Assembly (NCBI GenBank): GCA_038869515.1
Contig: JAWCQZ010000008.1
Coordinates: forward strand, 12,633 to 76,632
DNA from: Halobacteria archaeon
GTDB taxonomy: Archaea; Halobacteriota; Syntropharchaeia; JACQPP01
Length of the DNA stretch: 64,000 bases
Direction: 5' to 3'
Shown here: positions 3,584 through 59,318 of the stretch, in pieces
Layout of the letters: every line of letters starts with the position of its first letter
Numbering within the stretch: the first letter of the stretch is position 1
Translations under genes and position numbers: made by a program
The notes under the pieces: generated by a model
Told to the model about the DNA's origin: nothing
The model's input: only the letters and a program-made list of their open reading frames with translations
The model's database searches: none

Positions 3584-3781
3584 CTACCAAGCGGCCTTAG
3601 ACTGCATCCGGGAGCCCTTGAGGCCGTGGACCTTGCAGAACACCTGCCTCCCGTCGGTCACGGTGACTTTGCACCGGGCGCAGACCGGTCGCTTGCAGAT
3701 CTGGCACGACGCGACCCCGGGGGTCCCGGGGTGCCAGTGACAGGGCTTGCCGGGGAGGGGGGAAACGACGGCCGCGGCCAT
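3584..3781 (-). CDS. Small zinc-ribbon protein (about 65 aa, CxxC...CxxC) translationally coupled to the ACAD gene
   Basis: C-terminal 65 aa of ORF 3584..4225 (MAAAVVSPLPGKPCHWHPG…CQICKRPVCARCKV…FCKVHG). Its stop TAG at 3584-3586 abuts the ACAD start at 3583. Confidence 0.35.
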   Translation of the reverse strand: MAAAVVSPLPGKPCHWHPGTPGVASCQICKRPVCARCKVTVTDGRQVFCKVHGLKGSRMQSKAAW

Positions 3782-3839
3782 TCCTCGGGGGGAGGCCGGG
3801 GGATGGAAAACCCTTTCTCTCCCCCACCTATGCCCCCGG

Positions 3840-5498
3840 ATGGCCGCCTCCGGACCCCGCACCGATCTCATGCTCCCCGCCGGCTCCCTGAAGGGCCGCT
3901 CCGCCATCGTCACCGGCGGCGGGACCGGCATCGGCCTCGCCACCGCCAAGACTTTCGCCCGCCTCGGGGCCAACGTCGCCATCGCCTCCCGGAGCCAGGA
4001 GCACCTCGGCCCGGCCCGCAAGGAGCTGGAGGATCTGGGGGCCAAGGTGGTGGCCCTCCCCACCGACGTCCGGCAGGTGGCCCAGGCGGAGGCCCTGGTG
4101 AAATCGGCCAGGGAGGCCTTCGGCCGCGTGGACATCCTGGTGAACAACGCCTCCGGGAACTTCGTCACCCCGGTCACGAAACTCTCGGTGAACGGCTGGC
4201 GCGCGGTGGTGGACATCGTCCTCAACGGGACCTTCTACTGCACCCGGGCCGCGGGCCGCGAGATGGTGAAGCAGCGCTCGGGGCGCATCGTGAACATCGT
4301 CTCCACCATGGCGTGGACCGGCGGTCCCGGGACCTCCCACAACGCCGCCGCGAAGGCGGGGGTCGTGGGGCTCACCCGCTCCCTGGCGTCCGAACTCGCC
4401 TCCTTCAACATCCGGGTCAACGCCGTCGCCCCCGGCCCGGTGAAGACCGAGGGCGCGGAGAAGAACCTCTTCCCGACCCCCGAGGCGCAGAAGTCCATCA
4501 CCGACCGGGTGCCGGTGAAGCGGTTCGCCGCCCCCGAGGAGGTGGCGAACCTTGTCGCCTACCTGGTCTCCGACTGGGCCGACTACATGAACGGGGCGGT
4601 GGTCCCCATGGACGGCGGGTACTCCCTCAGCATGGGCGGACTGGAGGCGTGGGCGGGTCCGAAGGGCGGGGACAGGCCCCTCTCCCCCGAACCCCCGGCC
4701 CCCCGGACGAACGGGCTCACTCTCGCCGGAAAGACCGCCATCGTGACCGGCGGTGGGACCGGCATCGGGAAGGCCTCGGCCCTCCTCTTCGCCCGCCTCG
4801 GGGCGAAGGTCGCCGTGACCTCGCGCAAGGTGGAGAACCTGGAGCAGACCGTGCGGGAAATCAAGGCCGCGGGGGGCGAGGCGTTCGCCCTCCCGTGCGA
4901 CGTCCGGCTCCCCGAGCAGGTGGAGGCGATGGCGAAGCAGGTGAAGGAGCGCTGGGGCCGGATTGACCTCCTCTTCAGCAACGCAGGAGCGAACTTCCCG
5001 AGCCCCTTCCTGCAGTTGAGCGACAACGCCTGGAACGCCATCGTCGGAATCAACCTCCACGGCTCCTTCCACTGCGCCAAGTTCGTGGGGGCCGAGATGA
5101 TCAAGCAGAAGTCGGGAGTCATCATCCACAACGTGACCCCTTACGCGTGGACCGGGGCCCCCATCATGGCCCACACCAGCGCCGCCAAGGGGGCCATCCT
5201 CAACCTGACCCAGAGCCTCGCCGTGGAGTGGGCGGTCCACCGCATCCGGGTGAACGCCGTCGCCCCGGGGCCCATCCTGACCGAGGGGTCCCGCAAGAAC
5301 TTCATCGAGAAGAACCCGGCCGCCGCCGAAGTGGTCCGGCGCCGTGTCCCCTGGAAGCGGTGGGGGACCCCGGAGGACATCGCCCGCGCCGTGGCCTACC
5401 TCGCCTCCGACTGGGCGGACTACGTCACCGGGGCGTGCCTCACCGTGGACGGGGGCGAGTGGCTCTACAAGCCCATCGTCGAGCAATTGGCCCAATAA
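3840..5498 (+). CDS. Tandem fusion of two short-chain dehydrogenase/reductase domains, 2,4-dienoyl-CoA reductase-like
   Basis: Two complete SDR units each carry a TGGGTGIG Rossmann motif (…AIVTGGGTGIGLATA… and …AIVTGGGTGIGKASA…) joined by a Pro-rich linker. The SxnAAAK region lacks the classical Tyr, as in DECR-type SDRs. Start is ambiguous between 3747 and 3840 (MAASGPRT…). Confidence 0.8.
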   Translation: MAASGPRTDLMLPAGSLKGRSAIVTGGGTGIGLATAKTFARLGANVAIASRSQEHLGPARKELEDLGAKVVALPTDVRQVAQAEALVKSAREAFGRVDILVNNASGNFVTPVTKLSVNGWRAVVDIVLNGTFYCTRAAGREMVKQRSGRIVNIVSTMAWTGGPGTSHNAAAKAGVVGLTRSLASELASFNIRVNAVAPGPVKTEGAEKNLFPTPEAQKSITDRVPVKRFAAPEEVANLVAYLVSDWADYMNGAVVPMDGGYSLSMGGLEAWAGPKGGDRPLSPEPPAPRTNGLTLAGKTAIVTGGGTGIGKASALLFARLGAKVAVTSRKVENLEQTVREIKAAGGEAFALPCDVRLPEQVEAMAKQVKERWGRIDLLFSNAGANFPSPFLQLSDNAWNAIVGINLHGSFHCAKFVGAEMIKQKSGVIIHNVTPYAWTGAPIMAHTSAAKGAILNLTQSLAVEWAVHRIRVNAVAPGPILTEGSRKNFIEKNPAAAEVVRRRVPWKRWGTPEDIARAVAYLASDWADYVTGACLTVDGGEWLYKPIVEQLAQ

Positions 5499-5529
5499 GC
5501 CTTTTGAACCGCGGCCGCGACCCCGACCC

Positions 5530-5868
5530 ATGGCCACGACTCGGAGGCGGCTCACCCGCATCGAGCCCTTCTCGGCCGCCATCATGGGCGGGGCCACAGG
5601 CTTCGCGCTCGGGTTCCTGAACGGCCTCGGGACGGTCCTCTTCTTTCCCGCGCTGCGCCAGGGGATGAGCGACCTGGGCCTGGCCCAGTTGACGGGGCTG
5701 GTCAACGAATGGGTGAAGGCGTTTCCCTTCGCCTTCGAGTGGCCCGCCCTCCTCCTGAGCCCCATCGCCTGGGCCTTCGGTGGGGCCGGGGGGGCCTTCG
5801 CAGCCTGCATCTTCTACAACCTCCTGGCGAAGCGGCTCGGGGGCATCGAGTTCGAACTCGACGAATAG
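5530..5868 (+). CDS. Small membrane protein, hypothetical
   Basis: 113 aa from ATG 5530 (MATTRRRLTRIEPFSAAIMGGATGFALGFLNGLGTVLFF…) with two predicted hydrophobic helices. Confidence 0.45.
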   Translation: MATTRRRLTRIEPFSAAIMGGATGFALGFLNGLGTVLFFPALRQGMSDLGLAQLTGLVNEWVKAFPFAFEWPALLLSPIAWAFGGAGGAFAACIFYNLLAKRLGGIEFELDE

Positions 5869-5876
5869 CCCGGAAG

Positions 5877-6197
5877 TTAGAAGCGGTTTCCGGAGGCGGA
5901 GCCCTGGCCGGGTCGCGCCCGCTTCCGGCGGTACCACTCGGCGACCCCCGCAGCCTCCAGCAACTCCTGGAAGCGGACGGGGTTCGTGCGCTCGAATTGC
6001 GGGCCGTGCTCGAGGAGGACGGGGGTCAGGTCGGAGAGGAAATCGGTCCTGCCCAGCTCCTGCAGGAAGCGGCCGGCCGGGACCTGGCTGATGAGAAACC
6101 CCTCCACCTTCAGCCGCAGGCGGAGCGCCTTTTGCTCCGGGGTCTCGACCGGTCTCGATTCCGCGCCCTCCGACCTGCGGCGGACGAAGAGGCCCAC
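5877..6197 (-). CDS. Hypothetical protein (possible GTG start)
   Basis: Open frame downstream of the 6200..6610 gene. A GTG at 6195-6197 lies 2 nt after the upstream stop. No recognisable domain. Confidence 0.3.
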   Translation of the reverse strand: MGLFVRRRSEGAESRPVETPEQKALRLRLKVEGFLISQVPAGRFLQELGRTDFLSDLTPVLLEHGPQFERTNPVRFQELLEAAGVAEWYRRKRARPGQGSASGNRF

Positions 6198-6199
6198 GG

Positions 6200-6610
6200 C
6201 TACCGGTAGGCGGGGTCCTCTTCGAGCAGTTCCACCGGCTGCCGCCCCTGGAACCCCGCCTCCACGTCGTGCCAGAACCGGATGGTGTCCTCCCCCCGCT
6301 TCCAGCAGAGGAAAATCTCCCGCCCCTGGTGGCGCGCAGGGAAGTCCACGAGGCCCGCGTGCCAATCCTTGACGACGGCGCCCACGACGAGGAGCTCCTC
6401 GAGCCCCTGGTAGAACTCCAGGGCCTTGCCGTGGAACTCCCGGTTGCGGCGCACCGTGGCGAGGAGAGTGTCGAGGGGCTCTTCGAACTCGATGGAGAGC
6501 TCCTGGAGGGAGGACAGCTGGGACTGGAGGTCCTGGAGCCGCTCCAGCATCTCCCGGACCCGGGGGAGGGCGGCCCGCGCCTCCGGGAGGGTCCAGAGTC
6601 TCTTCCCCAT
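6200..6610 (-). CDS. DUF2203-like conserved hypothetical protein
   Basis: 136 aa from MGKRLWTLPE…. The motif …LVDFPARHQGREIFLCWKRGEDTIRFWHDVEAGF… resembles DUF2203 (from memory, unverified). Confidence 0.45.
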   Translation of the reverse strand: MGKRLWTLPEARAALPRVREMLERLQDLQSQLSSLQELSIEFEEPLDTLLATVRRNREFHGKALEFYQGLEELLVVGAVVKDWHAGLVDFPARHQGREIFLCWKRGEDTIRFWHDVEAGFQGRQPVELLEEDPAYR

Positions 6611-6645
6611 GGTCCCCGTGCCACTTCTCGGAATATGAAAGCCTC

Positions 6646-7008
6646 TCAGTTTCGGCGCCGTGCCCTGCGGCTCCGCCGCCCCGGGCCCCGGGGGGCGGGC
6701 GGGGACTCCCGGAGGAGGTCGCCGAAGGTGCAGAGGAACCCCCGGCAGGCGTGCTGGAAGTCGCGCCGGCCCGCGGGGGTCACGGAGTAGACTTTGCGGC
6801 GGGAGTCGGGCGGGCAGCAGCCGGGGGGGCAGTGGATGAGCCCCCGGGCCTCGAGGACCTTGAGGGCCGGGTAGAGGGTCCCCGGGTTGGGCCGGACCCC
6901 GCGGCGCCGGCCCAACTCCGCCGCGAGTTCGCTCCCGGACATGGGCCTCCGGCTCAGGAGCCAGAGGAGGAGGAAGGAGAGGAACCCGCGGTTCTCGATG
7001 AGGGCCAT
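6646..7008 (-). CDS. PadR-family transcriptional regulator with an unusual Cys-rich insertion in the wing
   Basis: PadR wHTH signature (…GSELAAELGRRRGVRPNPGTLYPALKVLEARGLI…RKVYSVTPAG…). The usual wing is replaced by HCPPGCCPPDS, and a further C-terminal HACRGFLC is present. Confidence 0.8.
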   Translation of the reverse strand: MALIENRGFLSFLLLWLLSRRPMSGSELAAELGRRRGVRPNPGTLYPALKVLEARGLIHCPPGCCPPDSRRKVYSVTPAGRRDFQHACRGFLCTFGDLLRESPPAPRGPGRRSRRARRRN

Positions 7009-48168: not shown

Positions 48169-48609
48169 TCAGGCCTTGCCCTCTTCCTTGGGGACTCGGC
48201 CCGCCATCTCCTCGGCGAGGGCCAAGACGAGGGGGAGCGCCTCCTGCTCTCCCCGGCGCCGGTTCTTCCGGTAGGCCTCCAGGACCTCCGGGTGCTCCTC
48301 GATGCGGCTGCGCGCGATGGCCCGGAGGGGACCCGGGAGGATGCGGCGGGTCTCGGGGTACCTCTCCCGGACGCGGACCGCCATGAACCGGACCAGGCTC
48401 TCCTTGACGGCGTCCGCGGGGCCGGGGGCGGCGGGCTTCGGGGCATGGGCTCCCTCCCTGCGCGCCCCACTCTCCCGGGGCTTGGAGGCCTTGGACCCCC
48501 CCTCCTCCCCCCTCCTCGCCGCGGCGGCTTTGGGGGCCTCGGGCTCGGCCTTGGCCGGAGCGGGCTCCGGGGCCTGGGCGGTCTCGGGCGGAGCGGGTCC
48601 CGGGCTCAT
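48169..48609 (-). CDS. Hypothetical protein with low-complexity Pro/Ala/Glu N-terminus
   Basis: 146 aa. Its ATG overlaps the GPN GTPase stop (ATGA). Confidence 0.35.
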   Translation of the reverse strand: MSPGPAPPETAQAPEPAPAKAEPEAPKAAAARRGEEGGSKASKPRESGARREGAHAPKPAAPGPADAVKESLVRFMAVRVRERYPETRRILPGPLRAIARSRIEEHPEVLEAYRKNRRRGEQEALPLVLALAEEMAGRVPKEEGKA

Positions 48610-49361
48610 TCGCGCACGATGTCCTCCCCCCCCATATAAATCTCCTGAACCGCGGTGTAGAGGTCGGCGGCTCCCTCGCCGGTGGCCCCCGAGACCGGGA
48701 GGGGCGCCCCGAAGGCTCCGATGGAGTCGAGGGCCTTGAACAGTTCGGTGCTCACCGCGCCCGCCCCCTCGAGGGCCTCCCGGAGCAGGTCGCCGTCGGC
48801 GGCCCACGATTCGATCCGCGCCCGCTCCTCGGGCTTGAGGAGGTCCGACTTCCCCAGGAGAGTCACCGAGGGGACGGCGAACCGGAACTGGACCGAGCAG
48901 GCGAGGAGGGCGAGGGAGACGAAGCCGGCGGGCTGGCGGGCGAGGAGGGGGTCGTAGAGGAACGCGAGGAGGTTGGGGCCCCCCAGCGCCTCGACGAGGA
49001 GGCGGGAGGACTCGCGGAAGGCGAAGAGCTCGATCTGCCCCGGGGTGTCCATGAGGAAGTAGTCGGCCCGGAGGGAGTCGAGTTCTCTCCGGATCTCCTC
49101 GGCGTGGAGGGCGATCATGTCGGCGGCGAGGATCTGCCCCCCGTTGGGGCCGACGCTGTAGCGGTTCATCACGTCGGACAGCTTCACCCAGTCCCGCACA
49201 TCCACGTCGGGGGTGTAGGGGAGTCGCTCCGCGCCCGGGTCGAGGTTCACGGTGAAGGCGGGATATTTCTGGGCGTCCATCCACTCCAGGAGCGCCTTCG
49301 TGAAGGTGGACTTCCCCGAGCCCGCGGTGCCGACGAGGTAGAGGCGGATGTTGTCCTCCAT
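48606..49361 (-). CDS. GPN-loop GTPase (ATP/GTP-binding protein)
   Basis: P-loop GTAGSGKST, GPN motif …SVGPNGG…, and …DTPGQIELF…. Confidence 0.85.
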   Translation of the reverse strand: MEDNIRLYLVGTAGSGKSTFTKALLEWMDAQKYPAFTVNLDPGAERLPYTPDVDVRDWVKLSDVMNRYSVGPNGGQILAADMIALHAEEIRRELDSLRADYFLMDTPGQIELFAFRESSRLLVEALGGPNLLAFLYDPLLARQPAGFVSLALLACSVQFRFAVPSVTLLGKSDLLKPEERARIESWAADGDLLREALEGAGAVSTELFKALDSIGAFGAPLPVSGATGEGAADLYTAVQEIYMGGEDIVRE

Positions 49362-49487
49362 CGCGGGAATGCGTGCTGCCGTCAAAAGACCCTCGGTCCG
49401 CCCTCCCCAGCCCTGAATCCGGGGTCTCGCGATCCCCGGTTCCGGGCCCGCGTCAAGCCTAATAGGGGTCGAGGCCCATGCCCTCCC

Positions 49488-49874
49488 ATGTCCAGAACCG
49501 TCCTCACGGCCCAGGATGTGATGGTCAAGGAGGTCTACACCATCGGCCCCAACCAGAAGGTCGCCCTCGCCCGGCTCCAGATGCTCCGCCATGGCGTCGG
49601 CGCCCTGCCGGTCCTCGACTCCGACGGCAGCCTGCTCGGCATCGTGACCCTCCGGGACATCGACCTCGCCGGGCACGACATCGGCGACATGCGCATCGAG
49701 GAACTGATGAGCCGCAACCTCGTCACCTGCTCCCCCGAGACCCCCCTCCGGCGCATCGCCGACGACATGGTGAAGAGCGGCATCCAGCGCATCCCGGTGG
49801 TCAGCGGGCGCGGAAAACTGGTGGGGCTGGTGACCCAGACCACCCTCATCAAGGGGGCGCGGAACTACCTGTGA
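49488..49874 (+). CDS. CBS-domain pair protein
   Basis: Two CBS motifs (…VYTIGPNQKV…GALPVLDSDGSLLGIVTLRDI…, …NLVTCSPETPL…IQRIPVVSGRGKLVGLVT…). Confidence 0.8.
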   Translation: MSRTVLTAQDVMVKEVYTIGPNQKVALARLQMLRHGVGALPVLDSDGSLLGIVTLRDIDLAGHDIGDMRIEELMSRNLVTCSPETPLRRIADDMVKSGIQRIPVVSGRGKLVGLVTQTTLIKGARNYL

Positions 49875-51058
49875 GCCTCCGCAAGGGCTCCCTGAAGGTG
49901 AAATCGCTCCACCTCGGGAACCGGGTGGCCCGGAGGGTGCGGGAGGTCCCCCCGAGCGGCATCCGGAGGTTCTTCGAGATGGTGATCGGCATGGAGGACG
50001 TCCTCAGCCTCGCGGTGGGCGAGCCCGACTTCGCCACCCCGTGGCGCGTCCGGGAGGCGGCCATCTACTCCCTCGAGCGCGGCGACACCTCCTACACCAG
50101 CAACTGGGGGTTGCTGGAGCTGCGCGAGGCCATCGCCCGCCACATGGAGGAGGGGTACGGCGCGACCTACGACCCGAAGAAGGAGGTCCTCGTCACCACC
50201 GGGGTCTCGGAGGGGCTCGACCTGACCCTGCGGGCGGTGGTGGAGCCCGGCGAGGAGATCCTCTACCCGGAGCCCGCCTACGTCTCCTACGGCCCCAACA
50301 CGGTCTTCGCCGGGGGCGTCCCCCGGAGCGTGGTGGCGGAGGAGCACGAGGGGTTCGTCCCCCGGGCGGAGGCGCTCGACGCGGCGGCCGCGAAGGGGCC
50401 GGTGAAGGCCCTCCTGCTGAACTACCCCAACAACCCGACCGGGGCGGCCCTCGGCCGGAGGGAGATGGCCCGCATCGCGGAGGTGGCGGAGGACCGCGAC
50501 CTGCTCATCATCTCCGACGAGATTTACCGGGACCTGACCTACGACGGCAAGCCCTTGAGCATGGCCTCCTTCGCCCCCGAGCGCACCATCGTCCTCGGGG
50601 GCTTCTCGAAGGGGCAGGCGATGACCGGCTTCCGCATCGGCTACGCCTGCGGGCCCGCCGAACTGATCGCGGGGCTGGCGAAAATCCACCAGTACACCAT
50701 GCTCTGCGCCCCCATCACCGGCCAGTACGCCGCCATCGAGGCCCTCGCGGCGGAGGGGGAGACGCGGGAGATGGTGCGGGAGTACGACCGGAGGCGGCGG
50801 TTCCTCATGGGCGCATTCAGGGAGATGGACCTCCCCTGCGCGGAGCCGAAGGGGGCGTTCTACGCCTTCCCGATGGTGCCCGGCGAGAGTTCCGAGAAGT
50901 TCGCCGAGGGGCTCCTGAACCAGCAGAAGGTCGCGGTGGTGCCCGGGTCGGCCTTCGGGAAGAGCGGGGAGGGGCACATCCGCATCTCCTACGCGGTGGA
51001 GATGGGGACGCTGAGGGAAGCGGTGGAGCGGATTGGGAAGTACGTCGAGGGGAAGTAA
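49871..51058 (+). CDS. Aspartate/aromatic aminotransferase (class I, PLP)
   Basis: …LLNYPNNPTG… and …GGFSKGQAMTGFRIGY… are fold-type I motifs. The GTG start overlaps the CBS stop. Confidence 0.9.
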   Translation: MSLRKGSLKVKSLHLGNRVARRVREVPPSGIRRFFEMVIGMEDVLSLAVGEPDFATPWRVREAAIYSLERGDTSYTSNWGLLELREAIARHMEEGYGATYDPKKEVLVTTGVSEGLDLTLRAVVEPGEEILYPEPAYVSYGPNTVFAGGVPRSVVAEEHEGFVPRAEALDAAAAKGPVKALLLNYPNNPTGAALGRREMARIAEVAEDRDLLIISDEIYRDLTYDGKPLSMASFAPERTIVLGGFSKGQAMTGFRIGYACGPAELIAGLAKIHQYTMLCAPITGQYAAIEALAAEGETREMVREYDRRRRFLMGAFREMDLPCAEPKGAFYAFPMVPGESSEKFAEGLLNQQKVAVVPGSAFGKSGEGHIRISYAVEMGTLREAVERIGKYVEGK

Positions 51059-51160
51059 GCGCAGAATCCGCAACAAAAGGGCTCAACCGCAAAGCAGGGG
51101 CCGCAGCGCGAAGGCGGCCGTAGGCGGGAGTTACGAGAGAGTTTCCGAGTGGAGCGGCAA

Positions 51161-51721
51161 CTACGGCCGCTTGAACAACTGCACGCCCTTCCCCAGGATG
51201 GAGCCCCCCGCCGCGACGAGGATGCCCGCCCCGGCCGCCTTGATGGCGACGCCGATGGAGTTCTGGAAACTCTCGGCGATGGGCCCGAGGAGGGTCTTCC
51301 CGAGGTCGGCGCCTCCGCCTCCCCCCAGGAGGGCGGCGGGGTCGAGGGAGGGGATGTTGATGGCAGGCGGGGGCGTGTTGAACAACTGGTAGCCGAGTTG
51401 GAACGCGGAGTAGACCATGGCGAAACCCCCCGCCATGAAGGCGCCCCCGACCCCCTTGTCCACCCACATCTCGTGCTTCCAGCGCACAACGACCGGCGCC
51501 GGGTGGGCGAGTTCGTGGGCGAGGGCCGCCTCCAGCCCTGCGGGGGTCAGGGCGAGCCGACTCCCGGCCCGGGTGAGGAGCCCCTTCCCGGTCGCGGACT
51601 TGGCGAAGGCCTCCGCCTGCTCCTTCGTGGCCCCGAGGGCCTTTCGGGCATCCCCGAGCCTCCGCTGGCCCATCCGCACCGCGCGGAGGAGGGCCAGTTC
51701 GCCAGGCGAGGGCTCGGCCAT
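51161..51721 (-). CDS. Hypothetical protein: N-terminal wHTH-like region plus Gly-rich hydrophobic C-terminus
   Basis: 187 aa from MAEPSPGELALLRAV… (ATG 51719-51721). The C-terminus is GGFAMVYSAFQLGY…AGAGILVAAGGSILGKG. Confidence 0.35.
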   Translation of the reverse strand: MAEPSPGELALLRAVRMGQRRLGDARKALGATKEQAEAFAKSATGKGLLTRAGSRLALTPAGLEAALAHELAHPAPVVVRWKHEMWVDKGVGGAFMAGGFAMVYSAFQLGYQLFNTPPPAINIPSLDPAALLGGGGGADLGKTLLGPIAESFQNSIGVAIKAAGAGILVAAGGSILGKGVQLFKRP

Positions 51722-51805
51722 GGGGGTAGTCCTCGGTCCCCCCATATATCTCGCGCGACCGGAGGGCCCCGAAAGGGGTATCCTCCCCCTGGGAGATGAC
51801 CACCC

Positions 51806-52594
51806 ATGGCCGCCGAGCCCCCCGCGGGACCGAACCCTCCCCCGCCGCCCGCCGCGAAGCCGCGCCGCAGGTGGGTCCTCCCCGTCGCGGTCCTCTTGGT
51901 CGGACTCCTCCTGGGGCTCGCCTTCTACGCCGGGACCCGGGTGGGCGGCCCCCGCGACCTCGCGATGCCCCCCCTGAGCCCCGAAGCGCGCGAGGTCTCG
52001 GTCAAGGTTCCCGGGATCGACACCTCGGGGGAGGGGGTCATCGCCAACCTGACCGCCCGGGTCCAGCCCGGCGGCGGGCTCGTCCTGGTGAGCGTGAACA
52101 ACGCCAAGGCCGCCCCCGACACCCAGGTCTCGGCTCTCACCGCGGCGCGGGTAGCGGCCAACCTGACGGGGCGCAGCCTGGGCGCCGTGGATGTGATTTA
52201 CTCGGTGCAGGCCGACGCCCAGGTGGTGGAGGGTCCCTCGGCCGGGGCGGCCATGGCGGTCGCAGCCGCGGCTGCGCTGGAGGGGCGGACCCCAAATCCG
52301 AGGGTGGCCATCACCGGGACCGTGGAGCCCGACGGCTCCGTGGGCGCCGTCGGGGGGGTGGAGGAGAAGGCGGCGGCGGCGCGGGACAAGGGCGTGACCC
52401 TCTTCCTCGTGGCCCCGGGCCAGAACACCGCGGGGCGCCTCGCCGAGCCGGTCCGGCGCTGCCTCACCGAAGAGTCGCTCCGGCTCTGCACGGTGGAGTT
52501 CGAGGAGCGGAGGGTGGACCTGGGGGGGCGCCTGGGCATCCGGGTGGCGGAGGTGGCCACGGTGAAGGAGGCGCTGGAGAGGTTCTATGAGTGA
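51806..52594 (+). CDS. Membrane-anchored stand-alone Lon-protease C-terminal (S16) proteolytic domain protein
   Basis: An N-terminal TM helix (WVLPVAVLLVGLLLGLAFYA) is followed by a Lon_C domain with the catalytic Ser in …VVEGPSAGAAMAVAAAAAL… and Lys in …GGVEEKAAAAR…. There is no AAA+ module. Confidence 0.7.
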   Translation: MAAEPPAGPNPPPPPAAKPRRRWVLPVAVLLVGLLLGLAFYAGTRVGGPRDLAMPPLSPEAREVSVKVPGIDTSGEGVIANLTARVQPGGGLVLVSVNNAKAAPDTQVSALTAARVAANLTGRSLGAVDVIYSVQADAQVVEGPSAGAAMAVAAAAALEGRTPNPRVAITGTVEPDGSVGAVGGVEEKAAAARDKGVTLFLVAPGQNTAGRLAEPVRRCLTEESLRLCTVEFEERRVDLGGRLGIRVAEVATVKEALERFYE

Positions 52595-53198
52595 ACCCCT
52601 GGAGGGGGGGGCTCCGCCCCCCCCGCCGTTCCGGTCCACTCCGGGGGGGTCGCCTCCAGGACTCCCCCCGAGGCCGAGACGGACGGTCGGCTCAATGGCC
52701 GTCGCGGCGGCTCTGGCGGCGGGGATTGCATTGGGCCTGCTGCTCGCCCCCTCTCCCCCGCAGGCCCTCTCCCTCCAGAGCGAGTTCCAGGGGCGCCTCA
52801 AGGCGGCCCTCGACCTGGTGGACTACGCCCCCGTGAACGTCACCACCTCCGAGCTCGGCATCCACCTCACCTCGGGCTGCCTCCGCCTCACCCTCGCGGC
52901 CCTCCCGGCCCAGACCCAGTCGGTCGCCAACGGCCTCGCCGGGAGGATTGACGTCCGGCCCAACGCCCACGACCTGATGGCGGAGATGCTCCGCGCATTC
53001 AACACCACCCTCCTCCAGATCCGGGTGGAGCGGCTCGCCGGGGACGTCTACTACGGCCGGCTGAACCTCCAGCAGGGCTCCACCATCCTCAGCCTCGACG
53101 CCCGGCCGAGCGACGCCATCGCCTTGGCGGTCCGGCTCAACGGGACGGTCCACGTGAACTCGACCCTGCTGCAGAAGGAGGGGCGGGGAGTCTGCTGA
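52587..53198 (+). CDS. Membrane-anchored DUF151 (bifunctional-nuclease, BFN) domain protein
   Basis: A Pro-rich N-terminus and TM helix are followed by a C-terminal …LSLDARPSDAIALAVRLNGTVHVNSTLL… typical of DUF151. The gene overlaps the preceding gene by 8 nt. Confidence 0.55.
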   Translation: MSEPLEGGAPPPPPFRSTPGGSPPGLPPRPRRTVGSMAVAAALAAGIALGLLLAPSPPQALSLQSEFQGRLKAALDLVDYAPVNVTTSELGIHLTSGCLRLTLAALPAQTQSVANGLAGRIDVRPNAHDLMAEMLRAFNTTLLQIRVERLAGDVYYGRLNLQQGSTILSLDARPSDAIALAVRLNGTVHVNSTLLQKEGRGVC

Positions 53199-53222
53199 GG
53201 CGCGCCCGGAGGGGCGCCGGCC

Positions 53223-54467
53223 CTACCCCGACCCAGTCTCGTCCTTCAGCAACTCCCGAGCGATGGTGAGCTCCTGGATTTCGTCGGTCCCGCCCCCTAG
53301 GGCGAGGAGCCGGACGTCCCGGTAGAGCTTCTCGACGGGGTATTCCGAGAGGAAGCCGTAGCCGCCGAAGATCTGGATCGCCTCCCGGCAGACGTCCTCG
53401 GCAGCCTTGCCGCAGTAGAGCTTGGCGGCGCAGGCGTCCTGCATGTTCCGGACGTTGTTCTTCATCATCCAGATTTGCTTCAGCATGAGGTTCTTCACGT
53501 TCTCCCGGTGCATGTACATGAAGGCCAGTTTCTTCTGGACCATCTGGTACTCCGCGATGGGGCGGCCGAACTGGACCCGCTCCTTCGAGTACTTCACGCA
53601 CTCGTCGATGCACCGCTCGATGACCCCGAGGGCCATGGCGGGGGCGCCGGAGCGCTCGCCCTCGAGGATGGAGATGGCCTGGATCCGGCTCGGGTCCTTC
53701 TCCTTCCCCCCGAGCAGGTGGTCCTTGGTCACGGTGACCTCGTTCATGTAGATGGCGCCGGTGGGGCTGGTCCGCATCCCCATCTTCTTGAAGGGCTTGC
53801 TGGTCTCCAATCCGTCCATCCCGCGCTCCAGGATGAAGCCGTGGACCTTCCGCTGGGCAGGGTCGCTGCCCGGGTGGTCGATGCGGGCGTAAACGACGAA
53901 GGTGTCGGCGTAGGGGGCGTTTGTCACGAGCGTCTTCTGGCCCGTGAGGACGTATTTGTCCCCCTGGACCTTCGCCACCGACTTCAGGCCGAAGGCGTTG
54001 CTCCCGCTGTCGGGCTCGGTGAGCCCCCAGGCGCCGATTTTGTCGAGGAGGAGAACCGGAAGGGCGTATTTCTCTTTCTGAACCATGGTGCCCTTCGCCA
54101 TAATGGTCCGGCCGCAGAGGCCGAGGGAGGCGCCGAGGGAGAGGGCGAGGCCGGGGTCGATGCGGGAGATTTCCACGAAAAGGAGGAGAAAGAGGGTCGG
54201 GTCCTGGGCGGTGCCCCCGCTGAAGAGGTCCGCCTCGGGGGCCCCCTCCATCGTGTCGCTCCCCTGCTCCTTCAGTTTCTTGCGGCGCGACTCCCACCCC
54301 GACTTGATCATCGAGGCGATGCCGAAGGTCTTCCAGATTTTGCGCATCGCCTCGTAGGTGAGGCGGTCGTCCTCCTCCATCTTCGGGACCATGGGCTGGA
54401 TCTCCTTCGCGAGGTAGGAGCGGAACATCTGGCGCGCCGCAAGTTGCTCCTTGGTGAAGTCGAACAC
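53223..54467 (-). CDS. Acyl-CoA dehydrogenase (second copy)
   Basis: 414 aa with the ACAD fold (…AWGLTEPDSGSNAFG…, …IQIFGGYGF… and a catalytic Glu near the C-terminus). Confidence 0.9.
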   Translation of the reverse strand: MFDFTKEQLAARQMFRSYLAKEIQPMVPKMEEDDRLTYEAMRKIWKTFGIASMIKSGWESRRKKLKEQGSDTMEGAPEADLFSGGTAQDPTLFLLLFVEISRIDPGLALSLGASLGLCGRTIMAKGTMVQKEKYALPVLLLDKIGAWGLTEPDSGSNAFGLKSVAKVQGDKYVLTGQKTLVTNAPYADTFVVYARIDHPGSDPAQRKVHGFILERGMDGLETSKPFKKMGMRTSPTGAIYMNEVTVTKDHLLGGKEKDPSRIQAISILEGERSGAPAMALGVIERCIDECVKYSKERVQFGRPIAEYQMVQKKLAFMYMHRENVKNLMLKQIWMMKNNVRNMQDACAAKLYCGKAAEDVCREAIQIFGGYGFLSEYPVEKLYRDVRLLALGGGTDEIQELTIARELLKDETGSG

Positions 54468-54567
54468 GATGGGGGTGTGGGGGCACCGCCCTTTTAAAAC
54501 TTCTCCGGGGGCGCGGAAAGCGCTTCAAACTTGTTTCGGCCGAGAAACCTGCTTTCGGGGCAGAAAC

Positions 54568-55020
54568 ATGGAAATTTTCTTATGCCCGGGGAGGGCAGGA
54601 CAGGCCATGGGCGCCCTCGACGACGTCCGGGCCAAGTTCCAGGCGGGGAGCGCCCGCCCGGAGGACCTCGGGCTCCTCTTCAAGGCGATAGAGGAGCTGG
54701 CCTCCCGGGACCCCGACGTCCAGGCCGAACTCAACGGCGTGAGGGACGTCACCGTCAACTTCGTGGTGGAGAAGACCGACCTCAAGACCTACCTGAGAAT
54801 CGCCAACCACCGGCTCCAGTTCGGCGTCGGGACCGCCCCCAACCCCGACGTCACCCTCTCGGTGAGCGCCGAAGTGGCGGCCTACCTGGCGGCGGCCAAC
54901 ATGGACAAGGTCCGGGAGGCGGTCTTCGCCGGAGGGTTCAACGTTGTGAGCGGGGACATCAACAAGTCCATGGCCCTCCTGCCCATCTTTGAAATGGTCG
55001 TGGAGAAACTGCAGGCCTGA
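54568..55020 (+). CDS. SCP2 sterol-carrier-like lipid-binding domain protein
   Basis: …LNGVRDVTVNFVVEKTDLKTYL… resembles the SCP2 family. An alternative start (MGALDD) lies at 54607. Confidence 0.7.
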   Translation: MEIFLCPGRAGQAMGALDDVRAKFQAGSARPEDLGLLFKAIEELASRDPDVQAELNGVRDVTVNFVVEKTDLKTYLRIANHRLQFGVGTAPNPDVTLSVSAEVAAYLAAANMDKVREAVFAGGFNVVSGDINKSMALLPIFEMVVEKLQA

Positions 55021-55122
55021 TGCGGGGGGCCGGTCAGGTCCTCCGGCGGCCCGCGGCGGCGGAGAGGATTCCCCGGTTCGGCCGCCTCTCGTGCATCCGT
55101 CCCCTCGGGAGTCGGCCTTCCG

Positions 55123-55767
55123 TCACATCCGGACCTTGACGGCGAAGCCCACTCCGTCCCGCACCGGGAGGAGGGTCATCCGGAACCGGGGGTCGCGAAG
55201 CATCTGGCCGGTGAACGCCCGGATGGCACGGGTCTCCGGGCTCCGGTCCCCCGTCGCCACGAGTCCCGACCAGAGCAGGTTGTCCACCAGGAGGAGGGCG
55301 CCGGGCTTCATGCGGGGCGCGAAGTTGCGGCGGGCGTCGGGGTATCCCTCCTTGTCGATGTCCATGAAGAGGATGTCCGCCCGCTCCACCGGGAGCGCGT
55401 CCAGGAGGTCGAGGGCGTCTCCGACATGGAATTTGAACCGCCTTCCGAAGCCCATCCGGCCCAGGCAATCCCGCGCCATCTCCGCGTGGTTCTCCGAGGC
55501 GTCGGTGAGGTGGATGGCCCCCCTCGGGCCCATGCCGCGCAGGAACCACGCCGCGGAGTATCCGAACCCGGAGCCGAGTTCAACGACGAGACGGGCCCGG
55601 ACAGCGCGAGCCGCGAGTTCGAGAAACCGCCCCACCTGGGGGCCCACGATGGGGAAGTCGAATCTGCGCGCGTAGGACTCCATCTCCCGGAGGACCGGGT
55701 GAGGGCTCGGGAGGCGCCGGGCCAGGTAGTCCTCGACGCGGGGAGTGTGGATTCCGGTGACCGCCAC
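55123..55767 (-). CDS. Class I SAM-dependent O-methyltransferase (family 3, caffeoyl-CoA OMT-like)
   Basis: …VVELGSGFGYSAAW…, …ILFMDIDKEGY… and …GALLLVDNLLWSG…. Confidence 0.85.
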   Translation of the reverse strand: MAVTGIHTPRVEDYLARRLPSPHPVLREMESYARRFDFPIVGPQVGRFLELAARAVRARLVVELGSGFGYSAAWFLRGMGPRGAIHLTDASENHAEMARDCLGRMGFGRRFKFHVGDALDLLDALPVERADILFMDIDKEGYPDARRNFAPRMKPGALLLVDNLLWSGLVATGDRSPETRAIRAFTGQMLRDPRFRMTLLPVRDGVGFAVKVRM

Positions 55768-55770
55768 TCC

Positions 55771-56247
55771 TCAGACCATCCAACCGGGTTTCCGCTTCCT
55801 CAGCCAGCCGTCCACGCTGAGGAGGTAGCACCCCGTGAGGCCCAGGGAGAGGGCCGCGCCGAGGGTGGTGAGGTCCTTGAGGATCCCCACCTGCCACCGG
55901 GGGACTCCGAAGAGGGAGACGATGAGGACCATCTCCACCGCCACAAGGGCGCAGGCGTAGCGGGTGAACGCGCCGAAGAGGAGGAGGAGCCCGAGGGCCG
56001 CCTCGCCGATGCCGAACACGTAGAGCGTGAGCGCCTGGGCGGTCGGCTCGGAGAGGCCGGGGACCGCCTGCTGCAGGAGCTGGAATCCCGCGCGGCCGCC
56101 GCTGGCCAGTTTCGAGTGTCCCTCGATGAGGAAGAGAGCAGCGAGGCCGAACCGGAGGGGGAGAGTCGAGAGCCGTTCGCCTTTCCGGACCACTTCCCAG
56201 CCCCACCGGAAGAGAGGCCGAGGGTCCACCGGGGACTGGAGGGGCAT
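55771..56247 (-). CDS. DoxX-family membrane protein
   Basis: 158 aa with four TM helices in the DoxX pattern. Confidence 0.75.
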   Translation of the reverse strand: MPLQSPVDPRPLFRWGWEVVRKGERLSTLPLRFGLAALFLIEGHSKLASGGRAGFQLLQQAVPGLSEPTAQALTLYVFGIGEAALGLLLLFGAFTRYACALVAVEMVLIVSLFGVPRWQVGILKDLTTLGAALSLGLTGCYLLSVDGWLRKRKPGWMV

Positions 56248-56299
56248 GGCAGTTCAGGTTCCCTCCGTCCATGGCTCGCTAAAACGTTGTCGACAGGGG

Positions 56300-57619
56300 T
56301 CAGCGGGAGACCTTCCCCGTCCCCCGGCCGGTGAGGCGCGCGAGATAGTCGGCGAGCCCCTTGTAGATGAGGTCCACCCGCTGGGGGAGGGTCGTCTCGG
56401 TGCTCAGGACGAGGGCCTGGGGGTCCACCTTGGCCAGGGCGCGGGTGATTTCGAGGTTCTTGGCCGCGAAGGTGGCGTGGTACATCTGCTGGAGGTCGGG
56501 GTCGTGGGTGTCCACCAGCCAGGTGCGGCCCGTCTCGGGGTGCTGGAACCCCATGAGCCCCATGTCGGGGAGCGTGTCGTCAATCGGGTCGGTGACTCGG
56601 AAGTTGACGATCCAGCGGTTGCCCTTCTTGAGGTCGCGGATGACCTCCGCGAGGGCGTTCCATCCCCCGCTCCACTCCTCGACGTGCTGGAACGGGGAGA
56701 GGACGATGACGATGGAGCGGGGCGTGATGCGGTTCACCGCCACCATCTGGGAGATGGCCTTGGGGAGGTCGCTCCGGCCCCGGGGGTAGTACTTGTTGAG
56801 TTTGTAGAGGATGTCGTAGAAGTGGTTCTTCCCGTTGCTCGGGTCGATGATGTAGCCGGCGCTGTCGGTCAGGAAGCCGATGCCGAGGAGGTCCTCGTTG
56901 ACGGTGGTGAGGCAGCCGATGAGGGCGGCGGTCTCGGCCATGACGTTCCACTTCCGGTCCACGATGCCCTCCCACGATTGGGCCGAGGCGTCGAGGAGGA
57001 CCCAGAAGGTCCGGGCGTCGGGGGGCGGGGGCCGCGTCAGAATCTTGCCACCGCGGGCGCTCTGCTTCCAGTCGATGAGCCGGGCGTCGTCTCCCGCCTC
57101 CATGACCTTGCGGTCGTAGGGGTCGCTGCCCTTCAGCATCTGGAAGAGCAGCTCCATGGAGCCCGAGCGCGCCATGCTGTCGGTGGAGCGGACCCCGAAG
57201 AGGTAGTCCTCCACGATGCGCTGGAGCCGCTTCTTCAGGCGGGCCTCCACCAGGGAGGTGGTGTCGAAGGAGGAGCCGGTGAGGGAGAAGAGGCCCTTGA
57301 AGCGCTCCCGCCCCCCCTTCGGCGCGGGGGCCGGGGGGGCGCCGGGAGGGGAACGGGAAGGAGGGGCGCCGCGCGGAGGGGGGAGCCGTCCGCCCGGAGG
57401 GGGGGGCGCGGTCCGGCCGGGGGAGGGGGCGGGCCGCCCCGGAACGGCCCCGGGCCGGGGAGCGGCGGGGGCGGGCCGGGGGGGAGCCATCAGCGGCGGC
57501 CGGGAAGAGGCGACGCCGCCCTTTTCCCGAATCGCCGCGCGGACGTAGGCGGGCGGGACCGCGGGTTGGCCCTGCGCCGGGGGCTGGGGCTTGGGGGGCG
57601 GTTTGGACGCCTCGGCCAT
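56300..57619 (-). CDS. DUF58 (vWA-like, MoxR-associated family) protein with a long Pro-rich N-terminal region
   Basis: 439 aa from MAEASKPPP… (ATG 57617-57619). A 100-aa Pro/Ala-rich segment is followed by a DUF58 core (…FYDILYKLNKYYPRGRSDLPKAISQMVAVNRITPRSIVIVLSPF…). Confidence 0.7.
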   Translation of the reverse strand: MAEASKPPPKPQPPAQGQPAVPPAYVRAAIREKGGVASSRPPLMAPPRPAPAAPRPGAVPGRPAPSPGRTAPPPPGGRLPPPRGAPPSRSPPGAPPAPAPKGGRERFKGLFSLTGSSFDTTSLVEARLKKRLQRIVEDYLFGVRSTDSMARSGSMELLFQMLKGSDPYDRKVMEAGDDARLIDWKQSARGGKILTRPPPPDARTFWVLLDASAQSWEGIVDRKWNVMAETAALIGCLTTVNEDLLGIGFLTDSAGYIIDPSNGKNHFYDILYKLNKYYPRGRSDLPKAISQMVAVNRITPRSIVIVLSPFQHVEEWSGGWNALAEVIRDLKKGNRWIVNFRVTDPIDDTLPDMGLMGFQHPETGRTWLVDTHDPDLQQMYHATFAAKNLEITRALAKVDPQALVLSTETTLPQRVDLIYKGLADYLARLTGRGTGKVSR

Positions 57620-57698
57620 CAGGCGGCGTCTCCCCCCGGTGTTCCCGTCCCCACATCGTCGCGTCCCATGGGCCCTTCGACCCACTTCCTTCGGAGGA

Positions 57699-59318
57699 AG
57701 GATGAAGTCTCCGCGGAGGATGGGGGGCGCGATGGCCTCGCCGGAGAAGCGCCCCTCTCTCTTCGGGCCCTTCCCCGAGTATCGCCTCGACCTCACCGCC
57801 CCGCTCGACCGCGCCCGCGAGAGGGAGCGGAAGGGGGACCTGGAGGAGGCCCTGCTCCTGGCGAGCCGGTTCTTCGACGAGACCGCCAAGGAGATTCTCG
57901 GGGGGAGGTCCGAGTTCGTCCCCAACGCCGCCAGCGCGGCGCGGTGCGTGGTGCGGTGCTGCGTGAAGATGGAGAGGCCGGAGCGGGCCAGGAAGTTCAT
58001 CGCCGACGCACGGTCCCGCGTCCCGCAGGAGGGTCCCGGCCCCCTCCGCCTCCGCGCCCGGCTCCGGGAGGAGGAGGCGCGCCTCCGGGAGTTCGAGGAG
58101 ACCCTCGGGGAGTTCCGGGCGCGGGCCGAGGGGTTCCGGTCCCGCGCGTCGCCATCGGTCCAGGGGCACGCCCTGCCCCTCGGCCTCTCGGCGCGCCACG
58201 CCGCGGCCGCCTGCAAGGAGATGGGCGCGGAGGCCCTCGGGGTGCGGCTCCTCGCCGAGGCGGCGCAGGGCCTCCTCGGGGCGCGCTCGACCGACCTCCG
58301 CCCCCTCGTGGCGGCGCTGGAACTCCTCGCGGCGGAGATGGACCGGCTCGGCTCGCCGGGCGAGGCGGCCCGGACGCTGGAGGCGGCCCGCCTGCGGGCG
58401 GAGTCGGCCTTGGCCCTCTTCCGGGCGGCCGGGGCTCTCTTCGGGGCGCCCGCGAGCTCCGACCCGGTGGCCCGCCTCCTGCGGCTCGAGGCGGCCCACC
58501 GGCGGAGGGGCGGGGACCGGGCGGGCGCCCGGAGATGCCTCGACGCGCTGACCCGCCTGCAGCCCGGCGAGGCGGCGGTTGAGCTCGCCCTCCTCGGAGA
58601 TGCGGGGCCGGCCCTTGACGACCTCGCATCCGCGGCGCCTCCGCCGGAGGAGGTGGTGTTCGTCCTGGAGTTCCGCGCCCGCCTCCTGCTCCGCCTCGGC
58701 CGCGAAGAGGAGGGGCGGCGGGCGGCGCGGGAGGCCCTGGGGCTCTTCCGCGCCGCGGAGCGGCCCCCCCTCGAAGACGAGTGGTACCAGCGGTGGCTGA
58801 GCCGCCTCCACCGGGCCGCGGGCGAGTACCGGCGGCTGCGGCTCCGGGAGGCTGCGGGCGAGGAGGTCGCGCCCGCCCTGGAGGCGCTCGCCTCCGACCT
58901 GGCCCGGTTCGGGCTTGAGGTCCGCGCGATGGAGCGCGGGGTGGCGGACGAGGCGGCGGGCCACATCCTCCTGCGGGCGGGGCGGCGTGAGGCGGCCTTC
59001 CACTCCTTCCACCGCGCCCTCGAGGCCTACCGGGAGGAGGAGTGGGAGGGGAGCGAGCACATCTACGAGGACGACTTCCTGATGCTCGACGCCCTCGGGA
59101 GGGAGGAGGCGCTCCTCCGGCTGACCGACCCCCGCTGGAGACATCCGCCGGAGCGGGTGGAAGCCCTCATGCGGGCCGCCTTCGACCCCGGCGAGTTCCG
59201 GAGGTTCGGCGACCACGCGGTCGAGGACTACTTCGCGGGGCTCAACCCGGGGCCCCTCGACCGCGACCCGGAGGAAGTGACCGCGGAAATCAAACTTCCC
59301 GAGGGTCCGAGGGGCTGA
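57699..59318 (+). CDS. Ala/Arg/Glu-rich alpha-helical repeat protein, hypothetical
   Basis: A long ORF with helical-repeat character. The start is uncertain (57591 or 57699). It could be partly an artefact of GC-rich DNA. Confidence 0.4.
   Translation, partial: RMKSPRRMGGAMASPEKRPSLFGPFPEYRLDLTAPLDRARERERKGDLEEALLLASRFFDETAKEILGGRSEFVPNAASAARCVVRCCVKMERPERARKFIADARSRVPQEGPGPLRLRARLREEEARLREFEETLGEFRARAEGFRSRASPSVQGHALPLGLSARHAAAACKEMGAEALGVRLLAEAAQGLLGARSTDLRPLVAALELLAAEMDRLGSPGEAARTLEAARLRAESALALFRAAGALFGAPASSDPVARLLRLEAAHRRRGGDRAGARRCLDALTRLQPGEAAVELALLGDAGPALDDLASAAPPPEEVVFVLEFRARLLLRLGREEEGRRAAREALGLFRAAERPPLEDEWYQRWLSRLHRAAGEYRRLRLREAAGEEVAPALEALASDLARFGLEVRAMERGVADEAAGHILLRAGRREAAFHSFHRALEAYREEEWEGSEHIYEDDFLMLDALGREEALLRLTDPRWRHPPERVEALMRAAFDPGEFRRFGDHAVEDYFAGLNPGPLDRDPEEVTAEIKLPEGPRG

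Follow-up and report, generated by a model that had tools for sequence, protein, structure and literature searches.

Two overlapping genes on the plus strand of a 64,000-nucleotide stretch of archaeal DNA (contig JAWCQZ010000008.1 of assembly GCA_038869515.1, positions 12,633 to 76,632; hereafter the window) encode a stand-alone Lon-type (S16) peptidase of 262 amino acids (aa), here called the Lon_C protein (window positions 51806..52594), and a BFN/DUF151 protein of 203 aa (52587..53198). The first is predicted to comprise a short cytoplasmic tail, a signal-anchor transmembrane (TM) helix and an extracytoplasmic Lon domain; the second a Pro-rich cytoplasmic tail, a TM helix, a linker helix and an extracytoplasmic BFN domain that ends in a cysteine. 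We tentatively read the pair, with a confidence that falls just short of even, as an outward-facing membrane module, made up of an ATP-independent Lon-type peptidase and a dedicated BFN partner (adaptor or regulator, or else substrate) rather than a free-standing nuclease. Taken singly, both proteins can be recognised as members of known domain families. The domain identities and folds, the intact catalytic dyad, the adjacency of the genes in both orders and the sequence signatures of an extracytoplasmic location are established, and what lies beyond domain identity, linkage and predicted topology, namely physical interaction, the direction of action (adaptor versus substrate), oligomeric state and natural substrates, we infer.

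In Pfam the upstream protein matched Lon_C (PF05362; E 7.6e-12, 45.7 bits, cutoff 21.1) and the downstream protein BFN_dom (PF02577; E 2.4e-20, 72.9 bits, cutoff 27), both above cutoff as expected from the Lon_C and DUF151 domains named in an initial annotation of this DNA; neither protein matched an AAA+ or PDZ domain in Pfam. The catalytic Ser/Lys motifs that the same annotation had noted are indeed present: Ser145, within GPSAG (codon 52238..52240), and Lys188 (codon 52367..52369) correspond to invariant columns of the family alignment, Ser145 being invariant in both family alignments and GPSAG occurring in all 21 members examined. Neither protein reached any family cutoff in NCBIfam, where the Lon, LonB and SepM models matched the protease core only and the full-length Lon equivalog models gave the Lon_C protein 28-44 bits against cutoffs of 517-891; no AAA domain was matched there either. 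The AlphaFold2 (AF2) model of the protease domain has a predicted local distance difference test score (pLDDT) of >90, and Foldseek matched the model to the Lon proteolytic (P) domains of E. coli, human, A. fulgidus, M. jannaschii and T. onnurineus (structures including 3wu6, 1rr9, 1z0e and 1xhk) with target-normalised TM-scores of 0.7-0.8. A profile of the family likewise matched >40 Lon P-domain structures among PDB sequences, with E values down to 6e-17. Residues 1-55 form the tail and TM helix, and a poorly modelled linker precedes the protease domain; the N-terminal sequence MA(A/T)EPPA is kept in homologues. There is one hydrophobic segment only (residues 24-42, KD19 2.52), which AF2 models as a helix of residues 25-45 and which is preceded by KPRRR (TM codons for about aa 24-45, 51875..51940).

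Compared with canonical Lon, the protein carries an additional long β-hairpin (aa 208-238; 52427..52519), modelled by AF2 as strands 208-222 and 225-238 with Cys219 and Cys228 at mirror positions. These are the sole cysteines of the protein, and the AF2 model and their conservation point to a putative cross-strand disulfide; the CX8C spacing is kept throughout the core clade of Lon_C relatives described below and is absent from Nitrospira relatives. The stand-alone TM-Lon_C architecture is common to >300 relatives (clusters), which already bear generic database labels, one having been named 'predicted S18 family serine protease' by JGI. A candidate class for the Lon_C protein is COG1750 ('predicted archaeal serine protease', stand-alone TM plus Lon_C, about 250 aa).

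From its domain content the Lon_C protein is predicted to be an ATP-independent Ser-Lys peptidase. CalpL is reportedly one Lon-domain protease of this kind, and LonC provides a further precedent (PMC3391209). The SepM/YlbL proteins of Firmicutes (NF041438) resemble the Lon_C protein in their N-terminal anchor, extracytoplasmic Lon_C domain, Ser-Lys dyad and lack of an ATPase, and are presumed to perform ATP-independent, site-specific cleavage at the surface. Proteins of this PDZ-Lon_C architecture were found among the Lon_C homologue matches. The window protein is not a SepM/YlbL, however, because it has no PDZ domain and scores 34.9 bits with NF041438 against a cutoff of 200; it is, moreover, archaeal, has a hairpin putatively stapled by a disulfide, and may be supplied with substrate recognition in trans by the separate BFN protein. 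Archaeal LonB shares the proteolytic fold and dyad and is also membrane-attached (PMC4343526), but it carries TM helices inserted in an AAA+ module, and its two domains face the cytoplasm (PMC4343526), whereas the window protein has a single N-terminal anchor and is predicted to face outwards. Lacking an ATPase, it cannot be classed as LonA, LonB or LonC. A review of archaeal membrane proteases gives cytoplasm-facing LonB as the only S16 enzyme, which also accounts for all experimentally studied archaeal S16 proteases (PMC4343526). The Lon_C protein points to a class of predicted surface proteases in archaea that is still uncharacterised.

The BFN protein keeps the family motifs RPxxHD and DxRPSD. 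In a 42-sequence alignment R124, P125, D129, D171, R173, P174, S175 and D176 are invariant and H128 is near-invariant. AF2 models a TM helix at residues 36-53, a linker helix at 60-74 and the BFN domain at 80-203 (pLDDT 93-97). As in the Lon_C protein there is one hydrophobic segment only (residues 36-54, KD19 2.23; TM codons for aa 36-53, 52692..52745), here preceded by RPRR, and the single-pass anchoring proposed for both proteins at the outset agrees with the models. The ectodomain (aa 80-203; 52824..53195) contains the invariant motif residues, Cys98 and Cys203, and four N-X-S/T sequons. Foldseek matched the model to TM0160 (E 5e-11, TM-score 0.78-0.81, rmsd 2.1 Å), as did the sequence profile when compared with the PDB (E 3e-5).

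In sharing this fold (TM-score ~0.8 to TM0160) and the invariant RPxxHD...DxRPSD signature, the BFN protein resembles TM0160, M. tuberculosis Cor (Rv1829) and the plant BBD proteins. These are soluble proteins of the cytoplasm, plastid or nucleus and often have acidic or UVR tails. Members of the TM-anchored BFN subfamily, unlike them, have an N-terminal anchor, end at a conserved cysteine, contain a second cysteine, are rich in sequons and stand in an operon with a peptidase. The Cys98/Cys203 pair is invariant in 16/16 TM-anchored members, with one cysteine after the second strand and the other C-terminal (105 residues apart in 14/16 and 107 in 2/16), and is absent from the cytoplasmic, UVR-fused, lipoprotein and PDZ-fused BFN forms. 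The Pro-rich N-terminal tail is peculiar to this genome and is no family feature.

Both globular domains are predicted to lie outside the cell, in an N-in, C-out (type II) orientation. In line with the positive-inside rule, lysine and arginine residues N-terminal to the TM helix outnumber those on its far side in each window protein (4 before versus 2 after in Lon_C, 3 versus 0 in BFN), and the N-terminal flank is likewise the richer in 16/21 Lon_C relatives and in 14/16 TM-anchored BFN proteins, the other two being tied. Sequons exceed the number expected from composition-matched shuffles more than two-fold: the Lon_C ectodomains contain 68 where 29.5 would be expected, and the BFN ectodomains 41 where 15.2 would be. 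The window BFN has 4 against 0.88 expected, a number reached by 0.4% of shuffles. Three independent signals, namely the charge bias, the invariant Cys pair of each TM-anchored subfamily and the sequon enrichment, place both domains outside, so the check suggested in the initial annotation, whether the domains share a compartment, returns a predicted extracytoplasmic location for each. This placement changes the range of possible targets of the pair.

Both reading frames lie where the initial annotation had put them, and the 8-nt overlap between them can be read directly off the sequence, which supports translational coupling. The junction (52576..52594) comprises a Shine-Dalgarno (SD)-like GGAGAGG at 52576-52582, the BFN ATG at 52587-52589 and the Lon_C TGA at 52592-52594. 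NCBI labels the products 'S16 family serine protease' and 'DUF151 domain-containing protein', under consecutive accessions. Its BFN protein (P0019, 167 aa) begins only at Met37, a start that leaves out window 52587-52694 and would remove both the overlap and the basic RPRR stretch. The upstream ATG at 52587 is the more likely true start, because the SD-like GGAGAGG stands before it, because RPRR before the TM helix matches the basic residues that every homologue has there, and because the N-terminal PLEGGAPP resembles PPEGEAPP of homologue P0023.

The initial annotation had let its proposal rest on the pairing being present in other genomes, and the pairing did recur, in no fewer than six more loci that are distant from the window. 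The seven closest Lon_C and the seven closest BFN homologues lie on contigs that are equal in size, pairwise, and the pairing is taken to occur in all seven of these close relatives. Beyond these, the genes directly adjoin each other in six distant loci, mostly of Aenigmatarchaeota, in which Lon_C is 39-51% identical to the window protein. Lon_C precedes BFN in L001 (Lon_C 50% identical, 1-nt gap) and L170 (46% identical, 4-nt gap), and BFN precedes Lon_C in L006 (Aenigmatarchaeota, 18-nt gap), L087 (0-nt gap), L171 (30-nt gap) and L176 (35-nt gap). Paired genes are always co-directional, with gaps from -8 nt in the window to +35 nt, and both orders occur. Flanking genes are wholly different among the paired loci (Ham1, ribosomal proteins, ThyA, a DEAD-box helicase, a TrmB-like regulator, Rnf subunits), the neighbourhoods being housekeeping or metabolic at every locus. 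Adjacency across divergent lineages, with minimal or overlapping spacing and in both orders, is a classic sign of selection for co-expression.

Outside the window's clade, 6/15 sampled Lon_C loci are paired with BFN, though BFN is at most rare in any genome; 3/15 are paired with an M50 peptidase gene (L172, L174, L175) and 6/15 with neither (L009, L011, L015, L019, L166, L173). In a neighbour-joining tree, one core clade has three branches: two are made up of BFN-paired Lon_C proteins, and the third holds the M50, TatD and unpaired loci. Unpaired Lon_C proteins of Nitrososphaera, TM6, Hadarchaeales and Iainarchaeum fall outside this clade. The M50 loci (L172 3001-4400, L174 3001-4308, L175 3001-4365) run Lon_C, a small Peptidase_M50 gene and then an MJ0043_C gene, the M50 partners being 186-198 aa long and scoring 32-48 bits in Pfam, above cutoff. 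Lon_C followed by M50 looks like a site-1/site-2 protease arrangement, in that an exo-facing serine peptidase adjoins an M50 peptidase in this sister branch and BFN is a single-pass type II protein like the substrates of regulated intramembrane proteolysis. Unlike in site-1/site-2 cascades, however, there is no M50 gene beside the window pair, and the BFN cytoplasmic tails are ~5-35 aa long and carry no effector domain. The M50 pairing suggests that the conserved partners of the Lon_C family tend to be components of membrane proteolysis.

At L173 (3001-4573) a gap of 1 nt separates a stand-alone Lon_C gene from a downstream TatD-family DNase gene, which is followed by Pus10, L21e and Rpb4; this is the only case in which a bona fide nuclease family adjoins this Lon_C peptidase. 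Many DPANN archaea (Diapherotrites/Iainarchaeota and Micrarchaeota) encode proteins of 600-850 aa that begin with a Lon_C domain of ~200 aa related to that of the window protein (L007, L008, L010, L012-L014, L016-L018, L020, L022, L024, L027 and L033; for example, L010 4914-7130). The Iainarchaeum contig L011 has two Lon_C genes arranged tail to tail, a stand-alone one of 256 aa at 3526-4296 (+) and a multidomain one of 816 aa at 4305-6755 (-).

Scanning genomes with the Lon_C alignment retrieved mostly canonical bacterial Lon, the Nitrospira stand-alone form and the long multidomain DPANN proteins, together with one new pair (L006). A metagenome scan with the alignment of TM-anchored BFN proteins gave 80 loci, 3 of them in the TM-anchored subfamily and the rest ordinary cytoplasmic BFN. 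A scan of viral contigs returned two cytoplasmic-type BFN loci only and no member of the TM-anchored subfamily, and no Lon_C-BFN fusion (Rosetta stone) was seen among the 120 best matches of either family. The module was proposed as undescribed, and in keeping with this no paper in the literature searched connects a DUF151 protein with an operon for a Lon_C peptidase, nor does any describe the exo-facing, Cys-stapled form of BFN, its operon with a Lon_C-only peptidase or the alternative M50 pairing.

A mechanism can be proposed on this basis. The two genes would be co-transcribed and translationally coupled, which would give similar amounts of the two proteins and their side-by-side insertion, both as type II membrane proteins. 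Like other Lon P-domains, the Lon_C ectodomains would probably form oligomers; those of BFN would probably dimerise like TM0160 and Cor (PMC3870250), with a putative disulfide stabilising the BFN domain. BFN would bind the peptidase, most likely as a substrate-selecting or regulatory (gating) subunit and thus as the in-trans counterpart of the SepM/YlbL PDZ domain. Alternatively, BFN may be the peptidase's own specific substrate, cut in the linker (aa 54-80) and so released. For this second option the NfeD/STOPP-stomatin operons (Pyrococcus PH1510/PH1511), in which a membrane Ser-Lys peptidase is encoded with a membrane-anchored partner that is its specific substrate, offer an analogy, albeit one with unrelated folds (ClpP-like S49 and an SPFH partner) and a different topology.

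DUF151/BFN proteins are widespread in bacteria, archaea and plants, and a crystal structure has been available since 2004; we know of no agreed function for them. In chloroplasts, three UVR-DUF151 proteins were among the most enriched ClpC1-trap interactors and were put forward as candidate adaptors or regulators (PMC8889267), and the ClpC1 interactome of M. smegmatis contains a BFN protein (PMC10433963). A haloarchaeal DUF151 protein binds CheA (PMC3579733). Among bacterial BFN proteins we found forms with signal peptides or lipoboxes, some with a C-terminal PDZ fusion. The envelope pairings of PDZ with Lon_C, of BFN with PDZ and of Lon_C with BFN, together with the M50 sister branch, point to proteolysis at the membrane surface. 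A broader idea, which we think unlikely though worth stating, is that DUF151/BFN is a general, non-nuclease protease partner that docks on ClpC through a UVR tail in bacteria and plastids, is fused to PDZ in the bacterial envelope and is co-anchored with Lon_C in archaea. Were this so, the archaeal pair would be an unrecognised two-component, ATP-independent cell-surface protease, especially common in DPANN, that could process surface or host-contact proteins.

Several observations weigh against an outer-face peptidase with a dedicated BFN partner. The case for the topology is statistical, and the segments taken as anchors may instead be signal peptides that are cleaved off, which would leave both domains in the same compartment with their tethering lost. 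TM-anchored BFN genes occur with no adjoining Lon_C in a group of Aenigmatarchaeota (L002-L005, L167-L169) and in L086, the solo gene of that group (~5001-5546 or 6001-6567) always ending a type-IV-pilus-like cluster of T2SSF, Pilin_N, small open reading frames (ORFs) and Laminin_G_3; many stand-alone Lon_C genes, in turn, have no BFN. Neither protein, then, strictly needs the other in cis, and the linkage is strong rather than obligate. The ClpC1 data show BFN proteins as interactors, not as adaptors. Lastly, a MiaB-like radical-SAM methylthiotransferase gene precedes ordinary BFN on the same strand in 12/77 metagenome loci and is its commonest conserved neighbour (L089-L165; for example, L165 1383-2768), an association that suggests a role with nucleic acids and not in proteolysis.

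These MiaB-like neighbours also favour the rival that survives best, a surface DNase or RNase, in which BFN would scavenge nucleic acids and Lon_C would mature, activate, turn over or release it; we consider this unlikely. The name 'bifunctional nuclease' comes from plant OmBBD and AtBBD1/2, which degrade DNA and RNA in vitro, but the activity was non-specific and largely metal-independent and was obtained with MBP fusions carrying extra domains (PMC7249048). M. tuberculosis Cor, which consists of DUF151 only, had neither DNase nor RNase activity, and its authors suspected that a co-purifying nuclease lay behind the plant results (PMC3870250). The polar residues H128, D129, D171, S175 and D176 are all kept in the window protein, as a nuclease would lead one to expect, but in the RPNAHD of its clade Ala stands in place of the Thr that belongs to the proposed TM0160 triad (triad per PMC7249048). 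TM0160, a structure with no assigned function, is, furthermore, the sole PDB relative of the BFN model (next match E 0.1), so there is no likeness to an established nuclease fold. The BFN cores are neutral to acidic (net charge -8 to +1), which does not favour non-specific nucleic-acid binding, though charge is only weakly informative as a discriminator between a nuclease and a protein partner. Scavenging would benefit nucleotide-auxotrophic DPANN, and most paired loci are from Aenigmatarchaeota; nucleotide-metabolism genes lie near Lon_C in L001 (Ham1), L170 (dCMP deaminase and ThyA) and L174 (dCTP deaminase), and TatD stands directly 3' of it in L173. The window genome, by contrast, is not DPANN-like, and its local neighbours are metabolic. 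The initial annotation had described the partner as a membrane nuclease-domain protein; with the family's nuclease activity resting on plant MBP fusions and absent from Cor, and with no nuclease-like fold found by Foldseek, calling it a nuclease is not supported.

That the two genes have no functional link and owe their adjacency to inherited synteny alone would fit the occurrence of each family on its own, but we regard it as very unlikely because the adjacency persists at the 39-51% identity given above, in DNA from ~35% to 70% G+C and with wholly different flanks. A defence- or stress-triggered protease/nuclease pair, akin to CalpL or other Lon-domain defence effectors and raised as an option in the initial annotation, is suggested by the Lon domains of CARF/SAVED effectors and by a weak match of the Lon_C protein to CARF_LON in PADLOC (E 1.9e-6), but is extremely improbable given that the PADLOC matches (E 1.9e-6 to 5e-3) cover only the shared protease core (aa 139-210), that there is no CARF or SAVED sensor and no match of BFN in PADLOC-DB 2.0, that each domain is predicted to face outwards, that the flanks of the pair contain no defence gene, whether in the window or in any of 13 related loci, where the neighbours are housekeeping or metabolic, and that the viral contigs contained no member of the TM-anchored BFN subfamily.

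The 'bifunctional nuclease' name is spreading through annotation on thin evidence, and the operon provides a concrete two-protein system in which a role of DUF151 in proteolysis can be tested. The stand-alone Lon_C family (>300 clusters) is, in addition, concentrated in DPANN archaea, whose symbiosis centres on cell-surface biology.

Upstream of the Lon_C gene lies a 60-nt divergent intergenic region (51746..51805), a putative promoter as read off the sequence. The only AT-rich element nearby is ATATAT at 51744-51749, and an SD-like GGGAG (51791-51795) stands 10 nt 5' of the Lon_C ATG; a scan for bacterial-type promoters and terminators gave no match and is uninformative for an archaeon. On the other side of this region is a divergent ORF of 194 aa (51161-51745, minus strand), 60 nt from the Lon_C gene. 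Its N-terminus is weakly winged-helix-like (wHTH-PRTase_assc, E 0.03, below cutoff), and its C-terminal half is hydrophobic and Gly/Ala-rich. We considered this ORF as a dedicated regulator and rejected it, as it has no significant family match and is not conserved upstream of the L001 pair.

The GTDB species representatives scanned contained no close relative, the best Lon_C match being 51%. Four well-defined window proteins (48606-55767) have pI values of 4.6-10 and roughly balanced acidic and basic residues; they are not halophile-like, in contrast to salt-in haloarchaeal proteomes, which makes a haloarchaeal origin doubtful, and the label 'Halobacteria archaeon' of this metagenome-assembled genome is probably loose. 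As expected at the ~70% G+C of the window, the region 48169-58966 contains very long overlapping ORFs on both strands, such as one of 546 aa antisense to the Lon_C gene (51161-52801, minus strand) and an Arg/Gly/Pro-rich one of 851 aa (56027-58582, plus strand), most of which are likely to be spurious and would mislead ORF-based annotation.

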